39,175 bases of DNA, taken from the IMG/VR virus record IMGVR_UViG_2627853910_000005. One strand, 5' to 3'. The position numbers and the translations under genes are program-made. Source of the DNA: a virus (Duplodnaviria > Heunggongvirae > Uroviricota > Caudoviricetes). Under the pieces are notes generated by a model. That model had not been told where the DNA came from. It searched no databases and saw nothing but the letters and a program-made list of their open reading frames with translations. Positions 2,669-30,676 of the stretch are shown here, piece after piece; positions within the stretch are counted from its first letter, which is position 1; the number at the start of each line of letters is the position of its first letter.

Positions 2669-5045
2669 TAGATTGACTCCCCCATCTGAGCATCAGTCAA
2701 TGCCTTGTGCCATATTCTGAAATTCCTGACATGACCAAATAAATGACGCAACCCGGCTGTAGTCTGGCCTCCAATACGGATAATTGCGGAGTTCTGAATA
2801 TAGGACCATGTGGCTTTCTTTTCGCTAGATATACGCCCGTTACTTACTGAGCACGTAGACTGATCTGACTTTACACGCATCCCCATAACCATTTTTTCAA
2901 GCGATGCGTTTTCGTTTACCCGTCTGTTAGCCAAACCTATATCACAATAAGGAAATCCGTCGTAATCTGTTGAACGACCGAAGCCAAGAATAATAGCCGC
3001 TCCGGTTTGATGACCGCCGGTATCAAAAACACGCGGTGCTGCATTTGGCGTTTTATACCAGTTCTTATGTACCTCACAAAGAACCGTAAAAGGAAGATTA
3101 TAAAGGTTATTCTTGATTGGGACTGTCACCATATCGCTTGCGCGAGTGCTTGCAGTTATATCAGTTACAATAAATGACGAAGCACTTGATCCACCTTCCA
3201 CTTGTGGAGTTGCGATATCCAGATAGTCTCCAGATGCTGTACCTGAACCTTTTACAGGAGCGTATTGAACCATCGCACCAATCATGCTCTCTGTATCTAG
3301 TGCATTAATTGTAGCCTGATAGAAAATCCAACCAGTAACCTCATCTTTTACAGCCTTTGCAATAATACGGTCTGCAGCAGTACCAGTTTTATCAATTACA
3401 AGTGTTGATAAATTGAGGTAAGCATCTCCCAAAAAAGTGTAAGTATAACCATCATGGTGTTCAAATCTTAAACGACACCTTATATTTTCAACATCACTTC
3501 TTACACGGCATGAAATGGTCACATATTTTTCATCACCTGTGACATCAAACCCTTTACTGCCAGAAATCGTTACGATATTAATAGCACTTGTCTGACCAAT
3601 AAGAGTATCTTTTACAGTAAATCTCCCATAAGTAAAATTAAAAGAATCCGTGGATATTTCTGTGAGTTCCAGATTGCCTGACTTATTCCATTTAGATGGA
3701 TTTGTTGAATTAAGCAGAAGATTAGTTCTTTGCCCCTCAATAAGCAGGCCATCACGTTCAAATCGTGGCTCATCAATGGCAGCCTCTGTCAGCACACCAG
3801 ATTTGTTAATATAGGTTGCTTTCGATGCACGTTTAAACTTAACAATCTTGTCGCCAGGCATCGTTATTTCGTCGTCACCAATAACAATCTTTTTATATGA
3901 TGGCAAAAAGCCCGTAATCATATCCAGTGAATCGTTAAACGGTATCCACACATCAGGCAGCGGCTGTAAGACATATTTATACGGATCTGCTGCCTGGCTT
4001 GCATACTCTCTGGCTGCGTCTTCACTTGCTTTTGCAGCGGTCTGGCTTGCAGCGGATGCTTTCGCCGAGTTCGCCGCTGCAGTCTCGCTTGTCTTTGCAT
4101 TGGTTTCACTGGTTTTTGCTGCTTTTTGACTGTTGGCTGATGCAGTGGCAGAAGCAGCCGCCGCGCTTGCAGAACCAGCTGCAGCACTCTCGCTTTGGGC
4201 TGCTGCATCCTGACTGTTTTTCGCCGCAGTTTCGCTGGCTTTGGCATTCGTTTCGCTGGTCTTCGCTGCCGTCTGGCTGGACTTTGCGTTAGTTTCACTC
4301 GTCTTCGCAGCTTTCTGGCTGTTAGCCGCAGCAGTTGCTGATCCAGCTGCTGAAGTCGCAGAACCGGCTGCCGCGCTCTCGCTTTGGGCTGCTGCAACCT
4401 GGCTGTTTTTTGCCGCAGTTTCACTGGCTTTGGCATTCGTTTCGCTTGTTTTCGCTGCCGTCTGGCTGGACTTTGCGTTGGTTTCGCTCGTCTTTGCGGC
4501 TGTCTCGCTATTTTTCGCGTTGGTTTCTGATTTTTGGCTGCTGTCGCGGAGTTTGCCGATGCAGTCTGCGAGGACGCTGCCGCCTGTGCGCTGTTAGCTG
4601 CATTTGTTTCTGAGGTTTTCGCCGCGTTCTTCGATGATGCCGCTGCAGTTTCGGATTTCTTTGCCGCTGCTGCGCTCTGAGAGGCGGCTTCGGCGTTGCG
4701 TGCCGCTTCTTCCACCATTGCCTCAAAACGACGCAATGCCTCCGGCATGACATCATCTTCCGTCATGGCACCGAGAAAATCATTCAGCGTACCTGGTCTG
4801 GAACCTTCATAGACGGTAATGGTCCCGGCATGTGAAGGCGGAAAACCTTCAACCAGCAGGGTGACGCTGTACTGACCATACTCAACATCCATGCTGTAAC
4901 GCCCGGCTTCATCCGGATTTTCAGAGGCCACCGTGTTCACCAGTACCGTGGTGCTGTTACGCTTTGCCTTCAGTTGAATAGTGCAGTTCTGTATTGGTTT
5001 TCCCGCACCATCTTTCAGCACACCTGAGATTTTTACTGCTGCCAT
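2668..5045 (-). pseudogene. stf: Side tail fibre (Stf) gene interrupted by a single-base frameshift
   Basis: The first ~160 aa match the lambda Stf N-terminus (MAAVKISGVLKDGAGKPIQNCTIQLKA...), followed by Ala/Ser/Thr-rich AAKTSETNA-type repeats. The frame breaks at an A5 run (plus-strand T5 at 4531-4535) and the sensible translation continues in another frame to a concanavalin/LamG-like C-terminal tip (RHLFGHVRNFRIWHKALTDAQM). One extra A would restore a continuous protein of about 792 aa. Confidence 0.7.
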
Positions 5046-5054
5046 ATCCACTCC

Positions 5055-27653: not shown

Positions 27654-28043
27654 TCAGGCGGCTGCACCCGCCGTTTTCTCGTACTTACTGATAGTGATCT
27701 CGACCTTCCCTTCCGGGATAACCGGTCCCCACTCCACCAGCATTCTTTTCACCTGACTGTCGTCTTCCCACACACCCGCGTGGGTCAGGGCGTCAAACAG
27801 CGCCTTGTTATAGTTGTCCAGATCGCGGATCCGGTTATCCGGAGGAAACAACACAATCTCCACTGAAGCAGGTGCCGACGTTGGTTTTGGCAGACGACGT
27901 AACTGCTCAACTATTGCTGCACACGCCGCGCTCTGGAATTTGCGCCCCGCCGCGCTTATCAGGCTCTTACCAGCAAACGCCCCTTTGTTGGGGTGTCGCC
28001 AGTACGTGTTCACGCTGGGCGGAAAAGGCAGGATCAGCTTCAT
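27654..28043 (-). CDS. rusA: Holliday junction resolvase RusA
   Basis: 129 aa; MKLILPFPPSVNTYW...RIRDLDNYNKALFDALTHAGVWEDDSQV is a RusA signature. Confidence 0.85.
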   Translation of the reverse strand: MKLILPFPPSVNTYWRHPNKGAFAGKSLISAAGRKFQSAACAAIVEQLRRLPKPTSAPASVEIVLFPPDNRIRDLDNYNKALFDALTHAGVWEDDSQVKRMLVEWGPVIPEGKVEITISKYEKTAGAAA

Positions 28044-28693
28044 GCCACCATCTCCCTGACCAGTTTTTCTGCCTGCTGGCGAACCTGCGCCAGAAAGGCC
28101 TCACCACATGCCTCAAGTTCATCGCGCCCGATGTAGCTGATTGCCGGTCCCTTCCAGGTCTTGTCAAAAACAGCAATAGCACCAGCGAAGAAAGCGCCTG
28201 TCGGCACCTGCTTCTCATCTTTCGGGATAAACCAGGCAGGCAGTTCAAAACCAATACGCCCGCGAATAAAAGCAATATGGTCCGCATCTTCCGGCCACCA
28301 CACTTCGCTGGTGGCAGCTTTGATCAGGAAAACATAGCGCCCGCCCTTATCACGCATGGCACTGGCATGTTTCATGATGTAACGCATGCCGGTGATGTAT
28401 TGCCCCTCATGCTGACTGGCGCGACTGTATGGGGGATTGCCAAAGGCAGCACCTTTAAGCTCCGCAAGGCGTTCTGACCAGTCATGCGCCAGCGCGTTGT
28501 CTTCCGCCGTGTAATACGCGGCACATTTGGCGTTATCACCGTCAGTGAACAGATCCAGAACAAACGGGCCAAACAAGGTGTTAATTCCCCAGAAAATGCT
28601 GTCCGGCGTGCGCCACTGATCGCCCACCTCCTTCAGTTCATGGGATGGTTTGTTCCGCAGCTCCACCAGCGCCTGACAATATTTATTACTCAT
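28040..28693 (-). CDS. Phage N6-adenine DNA methyltransferase (Dam-like)
   Basis: 217 aa with an FGNPPYS catalytic motif (NPPY). Stop overlaps the rusA start. Confidence 0.8.
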   Translation of the reverse strand: MSNKYCQALVELRNKPSHELKEVGDQWRTPDSIFWGINTLFGPFVLDLFTDGDNAKCAAYYTAEDNALAHDWSERLAELKGAAFGNPPYSRASQHEGQYITGMRYIMKHASAMRDKGGRYVFLIKAATSEVWWPEDADHIAFIRGRIGFELPAWFIPKDEKQVPTGAFFAGAIAVFDKTWKGPAISYIGRDELEACGEAFLAQVRQQAEKLVREMVA

Positions 28694-28787
28694 TAAGCCC
28701 CCACGTAAAAAGCATCCGCAATGTCTCCGGAAGTACACCCCGGATGGGCTTCAATGAATTTCTGAACTTCATTCAAAAGACTCATGA

Positions 28788-29780
28788 TCACCCCCTGAAT
28801 CCTGCCGGGATCTGGCTGTAGTCCACGTTGTCGTAACTGGCTTTGAAGTACGGATCTTCGCGTTTTTCTGTGTACGTGCTGACGGACGGCGATAAGCGCA
28901 GGGAAAGCTCATCCCATTTTTCCCGCAGCTTCGACGGGCTGAGCACGTTACGGCACCAGAACGGATCGCGGCTGACGCGGCTGTACATCTCGCAGATTTG
29001 TTTGTGAGTACGCCCATCCTGTACACACATCAGGCGAATTTCGTTTGCCCAGGCTGTCCAGTTCGGTTCTTTAGGACGTACCACTTCGCCGTCACATTCG
29101 GCGGCCTGCTCGTACAGAGCGATGATTTTTTTCCAGAGCCACTGTGCGCAGGTCAAATCATCCTGCGTTCCCCACTGGCGCTTTTTAGGGCTGAATACAA
29201 CCGCATCAGGATGGCGAGTTAAAAAATCCTGTTCAGCCATCTGCGTGTCCGGTTGCGAAGCGTCCGGACGAGAAGAGGTTTTATTCTCTGTAGTAATCTC
29301 TGTTGTATTCTCTGTAAGATCATTGGGCCATTTTGACCCGATGACAGCGTGTCGTTTTGAACCAATGGATCGTGTCATTTTGCGCTCATCCATCAGGTCA
29401 CTTTGACCCGATGGAGAAGTGCATTTTGACCTGATGGATTCGTTCACTTTGACCTCTTCTAAAAGCTCACTTTCATAGTTGATCGTGTAGAAGTTGGTCA
29501 TGTCACGCTTCGATTTATTGAGTTGCTCGCGACGCAAAACCCCAAGTGATTTCAGGCTTGCAAATGTGCGTTTCAGAGTGGACTCTGACCAGAACGGAAA
29601 CTGCTCCAGCCACTGTTCTGTCGTGTTATAAACCCAGCGAATTCCGCCATGCTCAGTGCCTGAATTCGTTTCATTCAGCCAGTAATGAAGCTGCTGCAAC
29701 ACAATTGCCTCATTCAGACCAATACGGCATGCAAGATCACGATTTATCACAATGGGCTGGGATGTCATTAACAGGCTCAT
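28788..29780 (-). CDS. Replication initiator (lambda O-like N-terminal domain) carrying the origin
   Basis: N-terminal winged-helix region (IVINRDLACRIGLNEAIVLQQLHYWLNE...). A Thr/Glu-rich linker is encoded by the iteron block; C-terminal domain of unknown type. SD AGAGGT upstream. Confidence 0.7.
   Translation of the reverse strand: MSLLMTSQPIVINRDLACRIGLNEAIVLQQLHYWLNETNSGTEHGGIRWVYNTTEQWLEQFPFWSESTLKRTFASLKSLGVLRREQLNKSKRDMTNFYTINYESELLEEVKVNESIRSKCTSPSGQSDLMDERKMTRSIGSKRHAVIGSKWPNDLTENTTEITTENKTSSRPDASQPDTQMAEQDFLTRHPDAVVFSPKKRQWGTQDDLTCAQWLWKKIIALYEQAAECDGEVVRPKEPNWTAWANEIRLMCVQDGRTHKQICEMYSRVSRDPFWCRNVLSPSKLREKWDELSLRLSPSVSTYTEKREDPYFKASYDNVDYSQIPAGFRG
29285..29459. repeat. Candidate origin of replication: iterons plus short periodic repeats inside the initiator gene
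   Basis: Six direct repeats of consensus yCAyTTTGACCyGATGG at about 23-bp spacing (starts near 29329, 29353, 29377, 29399, 29422, 29445), adjacent to three 12-bp TCTCTG-containing repeats (29285, 29297, 29309). Confidence 0.6.
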
Positions 29781-29789
29781 GACCGACCT

Positions 29790-30128
29790 CTATTTCCCTG
29801 AATTTACGACGAAACTGTTCGAGCGGACTGAAGCATTCATGTTCATAGCCTTCACGGAGGTAGATAACCCGTTGTGTTTCCGGCTCCCAACGAATGACTC
29901 TGACGGGCACTCCGTAGTGATCTTTGAACCAGCGGTTAACTTGTCGCAAAGGACTGTCTCCTTCTGCCGGTTGAAATCACCCACAGCCCACTCTGCAAAG
30001 CTGTGGGTTACAATTTCCCTATCACCTGGTACATTCACTGCATAGCAATACTCCACCTTCGCTTTTCCACCCGGTACAGGAAGCGCAATCAGTTGCGAAC
30101 GACGGTAGTGTGTTGTTAAACTGTTCAT
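29790..30128 (-). CDS. Hypothetical protein (112 aa)
   Basis: ATG overlaps the stop of the upstream 183-aa gene (ATGA). The C-terminal half overlaps a protein-like ORF in another frame (29737-29949), so the true product is uncertain. Confidence 0.4.
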
Positions 30129-30676
30129 GCGTTAGTTTCTCCACAGACACAAAACGCCACGACGCCCGGAGCTGCACACTCGCGGGCGTCACTCTTTTCT
30201 GGAACGCAGAAAATTTTGTAGACCAGTGCCGCATGTTCCTGGAGCTTCGAAATCGACAGATACAACTCATCATTAATTGCTGTCTGCTCATGTGGCTCCA
30301 CTACCCCGTCTTCGATTGCCGAACGAATCTGCTTTGAGTAACTCCCGATCTGTTCAATAACTTCCAGTAGACGTTGGTTGATATCAGCGTTCTCTACTTC
30401 CTCAATTTCTGGAAGTGATACAAACACCCCACCAGCAGACTGTGCGACAGCATCCGCAATGTAGTGAGTGCCAGCAGCACGCTGTAAAATCATTGCCCAT
30501 CCCAGCGGGAAAATCTGATCGCCATCTGCACGAAGGCGGTTGAATAAAGCGTTCTCTGTTACATCCAGCCACTCAGCAGCTTCAGCGTACCCCCCCGGCA
30601 ACGCCGCGATAGTTTTTCTGACAGCTTTCACGTACCACTCAGGCTGTTTTTCCACTTTCCAGTGATGATTACCCAC
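30125..30676 (-). CDS. Hypothetical protein in the cII position (possibly YdaT-like)
   Basis: 183 aa. GTG start with a strong SD (AGGAGGT). Immediately follows the Cro-like gene. The family assignment is a guess from position. Confidence 0.45.

Follow-up and report, generated by a model that had tools for sequence, protein, structure and literature searches.

Known systems and the locus studied

In lambdoid phages, iterons and an AT-rich tract make up the origin of replication, which sits midway along the initiator gene O (PMC7466680). Here we consider a comparable locus in the IMG/VR virus record IMGVR_UViG_2627853910_000005 (Caudoviricetes), a stretch of 39,175 nucleotides that was analysed as a whole and is called the window below, for which an earlier reading of the letters alone (the sequence-only reading) had proposed an origin embedded in an O-like initiator gene. 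The gene concerned is the following.

28788-29780, minus strand: initiator gene, 330 aa, from the open reading frame (ORF) list; lambda-O-like and carrying the probable origin

We consider it probable that the window holds the origin of a lambdoid (SfV/SfIV/mEp460-like) E. coli prophage, situated within its own initiator gene, in the part that codes for the linker. As far as sequence comparison goes, the layout is that of a lambda-type origin within an initiator gene, and what appears new is the family of the DNA-binding domain, the iteron, the structured region of 12-bp repeats and the lack of a P gene. As an origin, it is unremarkable among lambdoid phages; the DnaT-like tail of the initiator, and the rule that links such tails to loader genes, are the new parts here.

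Like ori-lambda (lambda and Stx phages, with O and P), the locus has its probable origin in the middle of the initiator gene, with four to six iterons about 20-24 bp apart and partial dyad symmetry, has an AT-rich, purine-skewed tract on the transcription-downstream side of the iterons (PMC7466680), and uses the iterons to encode an interdomain linker; the initiator also shares with lambda O a homologous C-domain and a position after cro and cII. It differs in its N-domain, which belongs to another family (a predicted winged helix, possibly RepA_N/DnaD-N-like), in the iteron sequence, in an AT-rich part made of three conserved 12-mers, in the absence of P, and in a DnaT-like tail (IPxGFRG) where lambda O has NTDWIYGVDL. 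Closer in gene neighbourhood, in the lack of P and in the tail are the proteins of phages SfIV, SfII, SfV, mEp460 and HannyBb, annotated as 'replication protein', 'primosomal protein' or 'O-like'. No origin is annotated in the records of these phages, and we found no description of this origin in the literature on SfV orf39 and on iterons in these phages.

Two further comparisons concern the ends of the protein. Its last ~25 residues resemble those of E. coli DnaT (...RD(V/I)N..S.PD..IPxGFRG); unlike DnaT, the initiator has neither the DnaT N-domain, nor the acidic PriB-binding linker, nor the PF17948 domain, and whereas DnaT is targeted by PriA/PriB, the phage protein would be targeted through sequence-specific DNA binding. 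A domesticated O-like protein with a DnaT C-terminal domain, beside a P-like loader, has been described in the DopC/DopE system (PMC5509034). With respect to the staphylococcal RepA_N initiators (pSK41/pTZ2162 RepA), the Pfam RepA_N family is not matched, and the C-terminal parts and the hosts differ.

The repeats within the initiator gene

Six direct repeats of roughly 23 bp and three 12-bp repeats had been reported at positions 29285-29459. Both families were recovered by a repeat finder and by Tandem Repeats Finder (TRF), and the reported extent proved slightly short, as the array reaches about 15 bp past 29459.

29328-29473, no strand: iteron array of six units plus a weak seventh, 23-bp period (repeat finder, TRF; core read in three frames)
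29390-29414, no strand: palindromic iteron at the centre, made of two head-to-head half-sites, CCATCAGGTCA-CTT-TGACCCGATGG (inverted repeat I3, 13 nt, 100% complementary)
29280-29316, minus strand: three 12-bp repeats ACAGAGAnTAC, a presumed DNA-unwinding element directly downstream of the last iteron (TRF; GC 0.30)

On the plus strand the units start at 29328, 29351, 29374, 29397, 29420 and 29443, with the weak seventh at 29466, and the first core-to-core spacing is 24 bp. The consensus is CCATCrGGTCAAArTGAC in the coding sense (yCAyTTTGACCyGATGG on the plus strand), and the cores read TTTGACCCGATGA, TTTGAACCAATGG, TTTGCGCTCATCC (degenerate), TTTGACCCGATGG, TTTGACCTGATGG and TTTGACCTCTTC (a half). 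An inverted copy on the opposite strand at 29390-29402 creates the central 11-bp/3-bp/11-bp palindrome, and fully dyad-symmetric units, GGACAATCTGTCC and GGTCAATTTGACC, are found in the relatives L097 and L099, a symmetry that the lambda iterons also have.

Identity at lag 23 is 0.58-0.62, the top value of all lags from 8 to 40 across the 39 kb; the window as a whole averages 0.255 (z about 7.4). Five of the nine window matches to TTTGACCYGATGG with at most two mismatches fall within 29332-29437, and ACAGAGANTAC occurs twice, both times in the array, against 0.05 occurrences expected. Since 23 cannot be divided by 3, and since all three frames are used to read the core GGTCAAA (giving V-K, S-K and G-Q, among others), the constraint acts at the level of DNA and not of a protein repeat. 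The sole comparable periodic signal in the window, the lag-21 repeat of a gene whose N-terminal domain is of the prophage tail-fibre type (3918-5051, minus strand; repeats of 189, 42 and 21 nt at 4075-4527), offers the contrast, as its periods are all multiples of 3 and point to a protein-level repeat.

The 12-bp family, located by TRF at 29285-29316, reads ACAGAGAATACA ACAGAGATTACT ACAGAGAATAAA in the coding sense, and its pattern ACAGAGAnTAC is found nowhere else in the window. The surrounding positions 29280-29319 have the lowest GC of the gene (0.30) and are purine-skewed on the coding strand, and the choice of the codons ACA-GAG three times over has a probability of about 7e-4 from codon usage. 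We infer that the 12-mers are the unwinding element, or a single-stranded DNA (ssDNA)-binding element, of the origin.

A GATC site stands just ahead of the first 12-mer (AATGATCTTACAGAG, 29316-29322) and is retained in many relatives, though not in all. With GATC at the origin and a Dam gene of the phage's own beside the initiator, control of the origin by methylation or SeqA is conceivable.

Architecture of the initiator

The assignment of the gene to the O-like group by the sequence-only reading was borne out: the initiator matches PHROG 391 ('replication initiation O-like') with an E-value of 8e-102, residues 1-330 aligning to profile positions 1-298 of 298. No match to the protein was found in Pfam and NCBIfam, and a sequence search of the PDB returned nothing at E <= 10. 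A structure model was calculated with AlphaFold2 (AF2) from 46 homologues, from which, together with the comparisons below, the following parts were delimited.

29451-29780, minus strand: winged-helix N-domain, residues 1-110, the presumed iteron-binding module (AF2, confident for residues about 10-110)
29256-29450, minus strand: disordered linker joining the two domains, residues 111-175; its coding DNA is the iterons and 12-mers (AF2 predicted local distance difference test, pLDDT, 44-54 over residues 111-170)
28881-29255, minus strand: C-domain, residues 176-300, homologue of the lambda O C-domain (AF2, confident and helical over 180-300)
28791-28865, minus strand: C-terminal tail of ~25 residues that closes with ...DNVDYSQIPAGFRG and has a match in the tail of DnaT

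The C-domain is 39% identical to that of lambda O (E 1e-19), with the conserved blocks PNW..WAN.IRLM and LSP.KLR.KW; a word-index homologue search with this domain gave mostly fragments below 283 aa and was of little use. The isolated N-domain does not match PF04492 (Phage_rep_O) at E <= 10, a family that lambda O and Mulock O do match. Between the two domains pLDDT falls below 50 (residues 114-156), and the AF2 model is also poorly defined in the C-terminal tail. The iterons set in near residue 109, close to where the N-domain ends, and then span the linker, so that the parallel with the lambda origin that had been proposed for this locus is upheld: iterons are followed by the AT-richest stretch of the gene, within a linker predicted to be disordered. 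The proposal that the repeats encode a Thr/Glu-rich linker applies to the 12-mers only (TENTTEITTENK), the iterons encoding a stretch rich in Ser, Lys, Gly and Arg.

Distribution of the array across homologous initiator genes

By scanning one genome per species, we collected 80 loci, and arrays were sought with TRF in 81 O-like genes from about 80 species. Conservation of the repeats at this position, named beforehand as a test of the predicted origin, was found in 77 of the 81 genes, the tandem array starting at nucleotide 62-547 of the gene (about 230-550 in full-length genes). As a positive control, lambda O was searched for repeats in the same way, and its four iterons came out at the corresponding position.

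When the genes are clustered by N-domain, the period and the sequence of the unit track the N-domain cluster and not the C-domain or the class of tail: units are of 22-23 bp in cluster 1, mostly of 15 bp or 24 bp in cluster 2 (with some 22-bp and 30/45-bp double units), of 12 bp in cluster 3, and mostly of 21-24 bp in the lambda cluster. Most relatives with an N-domain 44-79% identical to that of the window (genera Escherichia, Trabulsiella, Rahnella, Edwardsiella, Scandinavium and Proteus) have units of the GGTCAAAATGAC type that recur every 23 bp (every 24 bp in L102); the exceptions are L097 and L099, with cores diverged to the dyad-symmetric form, and four Proteus loci for which TRF gave 12-mers only. 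Of the 16 window-type relatives checked, 14 have the 12-mers, in 2 to 5 copies at the same offset, and the remaining two (L111 and L131) have one exact ACAGAGA each. L097 keeps the full set of 12-mers despite its changed iteron core. The 12-mers are absent from the more distant relatives and the other N-domain types checked.

The named phages follow the same pattern. HannyBb and mEp460_ev081, with initiators 71% identical, are of the iteron and 12-mer type of the window, and HannyBb retains the 23-bp units and three 12-mers. By contrast, SfIV and SfII have a C-domain near-identical to that of the window joined to an unrelated HTH_36 N-domain, and 15-bp repeats, which in SfIV are of the type CAGATTTTGACGGGT and lie at the equivalent place. 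SfV has only the tail in common with the window initiator. These comparisons show that the N-domain, iterons and 12-mers are inherited as one unit and exchanged independently of the C-domain and the tail. They agree with the suggestion of the sequence-only reading that the iterons would define replication specificity, as the unit tracks the type of N-domain across the 81 genes and both the N-domain and the repeats differ in SfIV.

It could be argued that the repeats only reflect a low-complexity linker in the protein, or slippage during replication, and that they serve no purpose as DNA. The region does encode a disordered linker, the number of 12-mer copies ranges from 2 to 5 among relatives, and one relative has lost exactly one 23-bp unit. 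We nevertheless regard this explanation as highly improbable: a 23-bp period can neither arise from nor persist through an amino-acid repeat; the three frames give different peptides from one DNA core; in the IMG/VR relatives the DNA core is kept where the encoded peptide differs; and the unit covaries with the DNA-binding domain. The relative concerned, the IMG/VR contig L061, has by this loss a frameshift and a truncated product of 119 aa, from which it follows that such events are not neutral. In another IMG/VR contig, L060, a 1-nt deletion lies within the array, and the array is a hot spot of inactivating rearrangements.

A second alternative is that initiator binding to the repeats serves autoregulation, copy control or incompatibility (by handcuffing or titration), the strands being opened elsewhere in the phage. 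Plasmid iterons are known in such roles, and an isolated exact copy of the iteron core TTTGACCTGATGG, of which ~0.002 would be expected by chance in the window, lies at 16194-16206 (minus strand) inside the large terminase gene. That copy has no neighbouring copies and no second cluster of the motif is present anywhere in the window; moreover, the conserved, AT-rich block of 12-mers matches the lambda unwinding region in position and strand asymmetry, and the homologous initiators that carry an array at this place include that of lambda, where the origin is proven. We therefore hold a purely regulatory role to be improbable, and the repeat region is, on comparative grounds, probably an origin with its cognate initiator. 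This origin would define a replication-specificity (incompatibility) type common to many prophages of E. coli, Shigella, the Klebsiella group and Proteus.

Four of the loci collected (L089, L114, L131 and L149) come from records titled as Bacillota, Veillonella or Lysinibacillus metagenome-assembled genomes, and thus show enterobacterial-type O-like genes in Firmicutes-binned contigs. In L089 and L114 the products are 68-69% identical to the window's initiator from end to end, and in L131 and L149 they are 28-41% identical. Contamination during binning is the most likely explanation.

A DnaT-like tail and no loader gene

The sequence-only reading had stated that no P- or DnaC-like loader gene follows the initiator and that a Dam methyltransferase takes its place. 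This was confirmed: in phmmer searches, lambda P, Mulock P and E. coli DnaC have no match at E <= 10 among the window ORFs of at least 60 aa, and no gene for a DnaB-type helicase is found in the window. The ORFs downstream of the initiator carry the Pfam domains Dam, RusA, KilA-N and DUF968.

28040-28738, minus strand: Dam-type N6-adenine methyltransferase, in the position of lambda P (PF05869, E 4.8e-46; TIGR01712, E 5.6e-76)

It had also been suggested that helicase recruitment could then depend on the C-terminal part of the initiator, which may apply, given a DnaT-like tail that covaries with loader genes. The initiator ends in ...DYSQIPAGFRG and E. coli DnaT in ...PDSQIPPGFRG, and BLASTP aligns the two ends with eight identities in nine positions (SQIPAGFRG and SQIPPGFRG). 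When initiator C-domains were compared with DnaT orthologues by hhalign, only the last 25 columns aligned (probability 94.8%, E 4.8e-8), which means that the tail is common to both and not the DnaT fold; in agreement, Pfam gives no match of PF17948 (the DnaT three-helix domain) to the initiator C-domain, whereas E. coli DnaT matches at 3.7e-21. DnaT orthologues conserve EPDxxIPxGFRG, the x before G being variable, and the phage proteins show a like pattern. SfV orf39 shares with the window initiator just the last 33 residues, which are 82% identical, indicating that the tail is a movable module. Proteins of the group with N-domains of 81-83% identity, where the C-terminus is complete, all end in xPxGFR(G/S), and their sequence downstream of the 12-mers differs from that of the window. 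A literature search for the string 'PGFRG' returned collagen papers only.

Tail classes and downstream genes

The initiators of the collected loci were classified by tail and compared with the genes directly downstream, as follows.

Tail ...NTDWI.G, lambda-like (TDW): 16 loci; P-like gene directly downstream in 16, DnaC-like in 0
Tail ...WN..EAWE..L (WNxEAW): 25 loci; P-like gene directly downstream in 25, DnaC-like in 0
Tail ...GFR(G/S), DnaT-like: 19 loci; P-like gene directly downstream in 0, DnaC-like in 3
Tail WNSIW: 11 loci; P-like gene directly downstream in 0, DnaC-like in 0
Tail GWKG: 2 loci; P-like gene directly downstream in 0, DnaC-like in 0

The class of tail perfectly predicts whether a P gene lies downstream, the TDW and WNxEAW tails together being followed by one in 41 of 41 loci. 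In 85 further loci with DnaT-type tails (IMG/VR relatives, SfIV, SfV, HannyBb and mEp460 variants), no P or other loader gene was found within 2.5-3 kb, and when, for each locus with a GFR, WNSIW or GWKG tail, the next three ORFs downstream were searched with Pfam, no DnaB, P or other loader turned up besides the three DnaC homologues. L091 and L096, which combine a window-type N-domain, iterons, 12-mers and an alignable C-domain, have nonetheless a WN..EAW tail and a P gene, and are natural swaps. The O-like initiators are mosaics of three parts: the N-domain with iterons and unwinding element, the C-domain core, and the terminal tail.

In three prophages (L109, Enterobacteriaceae bacterium; L116, Enterobacter vonholyi; L119, Enterobacter mori), the gene directly after the initiator with a DnaT-like tail is a DnaC homologue, and the pair mirrors the dnaT-dnaC operon of the host. 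The DnaC homologue of L116 is 48% identical to E. coli DnaC, and the tail of its initiator, RDINQISRPDNTVPPGFRG, is very close to that of DnaT, RDVNTVSEPDSQIPPGFRG.

The WNSIW tails belong to L098, L100-L104, L126, L128, L130, L154 and L158, and the GWKG tails to L097 and L124. ORFs of 440 aa that follow some initiators with GFR or GWKG tails were considered as DnaB-type helicases and rejected, as they contain a ParB-type IIDGHHR motif and HTH_ParB.

Proposed mechanism and the role of the tail

We propose that the initiator would be made by early rightward transcription and that its N-domains would then bind the iterons, as dimers on the central palindrome and co-operatively on the half-symmetric units, so that the DNA would be wrapped into an O-some-like complex. 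The resulting strain would open the adjoining purine-skewed 12-mer region. As the phage has no P, the C-domain and the DnaT-like tail are proposed to fetch the host DnaB-DnaC, through the contact that DnaT would use in replication restart, after which the host replisome would take over. That the tail works by recruiting DnaB/DnaC, and not another partner, is plausible, if short of probable, from the sequence evidence; given the covariation of tails and loader genes, a DnaB-DnaC contact is the most economical reading. The means by which the preprimosome brings in DnaB/DnaC is stated as unknown in two studies (PMC13377028, PMC11087952).

In a different account, the iterons are real initiator-binding sites, and the initiator is an origin-bound mimic of DnaT, the tail of which docks PriA/PriB for a PriA-type primosome or helps ssDNA to be bound co-operatively, or filaments to form, on the unwound 12-mers. 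In a 2026 cryo-electron microscopy (cryo-EM) study the DnaT C-domain is docked on PriA through a hydrophobic surface, and on ssDNA it assembles into filaments (PMC13377028); the tail of the initiator is itself hydrophobic and aromatic (IPxGF). Deletion of DnaT residues 154-179 reduces co-operativity and lowers the affinity for ssDNA, the latter only about 2.7-fold (PMC4132743), and a 2024 study states that direct contact of DnaC with PriA, PriB or DnaT was never demonstrated (PMC11087952). Against this, the initiator has neither the three-helix DNA-binding domain nor the acidic PriB-binding linker of DnaT, and its type of tail is never found with P and is sometimes found with a phage DnaC, for which reason a contact with helicase or loader fits better. 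We judge the PriA- or ssDNA-directed role unlikely, though the least so of the three rival readings.

The modest effect of the DnaT deletion weighs also against our own reading, as do several other points. The cryo-EM study suggests the N-domain of DnaT, and not the tail, as a possible recruiter of DnaB/DnaC (PMC13377028), and in the DnaT literature we found no role defined for the extreme C-terminal tail. WNSIW and GWKG tails also occur with neither P nor DnaC, so that life without a loader gene does not need a DnaT tail. The loci compared are related and the counts are therefore not independent events; the flank examined in these related loci was 2.5-4 kb, with ORF starts chosen mechanically. 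As to the origin itself, two of the six iteron units are degenerate, and the N-domain, with no PF04492 match, is not of the lambda O family, which means that details of DNA binding by lambda O are not transferable. Finally, head genes seem to be missing and the prophage may thus be defective: in the region of about 14900-18600, small ORFs come within ~600 bp after the gpA-type large terminase gene (15973-18075), with a 1031-aa ORF (11563-14658) next, and no ORF of portal or capsid size lies between the terminase gene and the latter.

Beyond the recruitment of DnaB-DnaC at this origin, a wider and doubtful proposal is that the DnaT tail EPDxxIPxGFRG is the docking peptide for the preprimosome hand-over to DnaB6-DnaC6, which a large group of lambdoid phages would have grafted onto origin binders for P-free loading of the host helicase, the last 10-25 residues of O-like initiators being an exchangeable 'address label' for the loader system. 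If this were true, lambda-type tails would go with P, DnaT-type tails with a host or phage DnaC, and WNSIW and GWKG tails with other partners. The DnaT-like tail would offer a handle on DnaB loading in P-less lambdoid phages (SfV, SfIV, mEp460), and on the question of where in the PriA-PriB-DnaT preprimosome the contact with DnaB/DnaC lies.

Gene neighbourhood and other features of the window

The genes around the initiator and at the end of the window are the following.

30669-30929, minus strand: cro-like gene (Pfam HTH_3), upstream of the initiator on the same strand
30125-30676, minus strand: cII/CP76-like gene (Pfam PF06892), upstream of the initiator on the same strand
29790-30128, minus strand: small ORF of 112 aa between the cII/CP76-like gene and the initiator (phrog_1170, E 1e-69)
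31027-31719, plus strand: cI gene, with S24 peptidase and helix-turn-helix domains (Pfam), divergent from cro
37937-39175: integrase, at the end of the window

On the minus strand, the order cro, cII/CP76-like gene, small ORF, initiator, Dam, RusA, KilA-N, DUF968 and Q is that of a typical lambdoid early-right operon, and rightward early transcription from the cro/cII region would run through the initiator gene. A promoter and terminator scan of 28600-31100 gave nothing that exceeds shuffled expectation. As the window terminates in an integrase, we take it to be a prophage. Its nearest annotated relative is Escherichia phage mEp460_4F5 (99.3% identity over the region), in which the gene 99% identical to the initiator gene is named 'Primosomal protein I'.

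An ORF of 70 aa with a TTG start (29737-29949, minus strand) matches DUF4222 (PF13973, E 1.5e-18) and phrog_1343; it overlaps the 112-aa phrog_1170 ORF by 160 nt in another frame, and it also covers 44 nt at the start of the initiator gene. It is unlikely that both members of this pair are ordinary genes, and overlapping genes, a frameshift, or a family derived from a mis-called ORF are possible explanations. Beside the integrase, a 531-aa protein (36189-37784, plus strand) contains a cytidine/dCMP deaminase domain (PF00383), with matches to MafB19- and Bd3614-type deaminases, and may be a cargo or defence gene.

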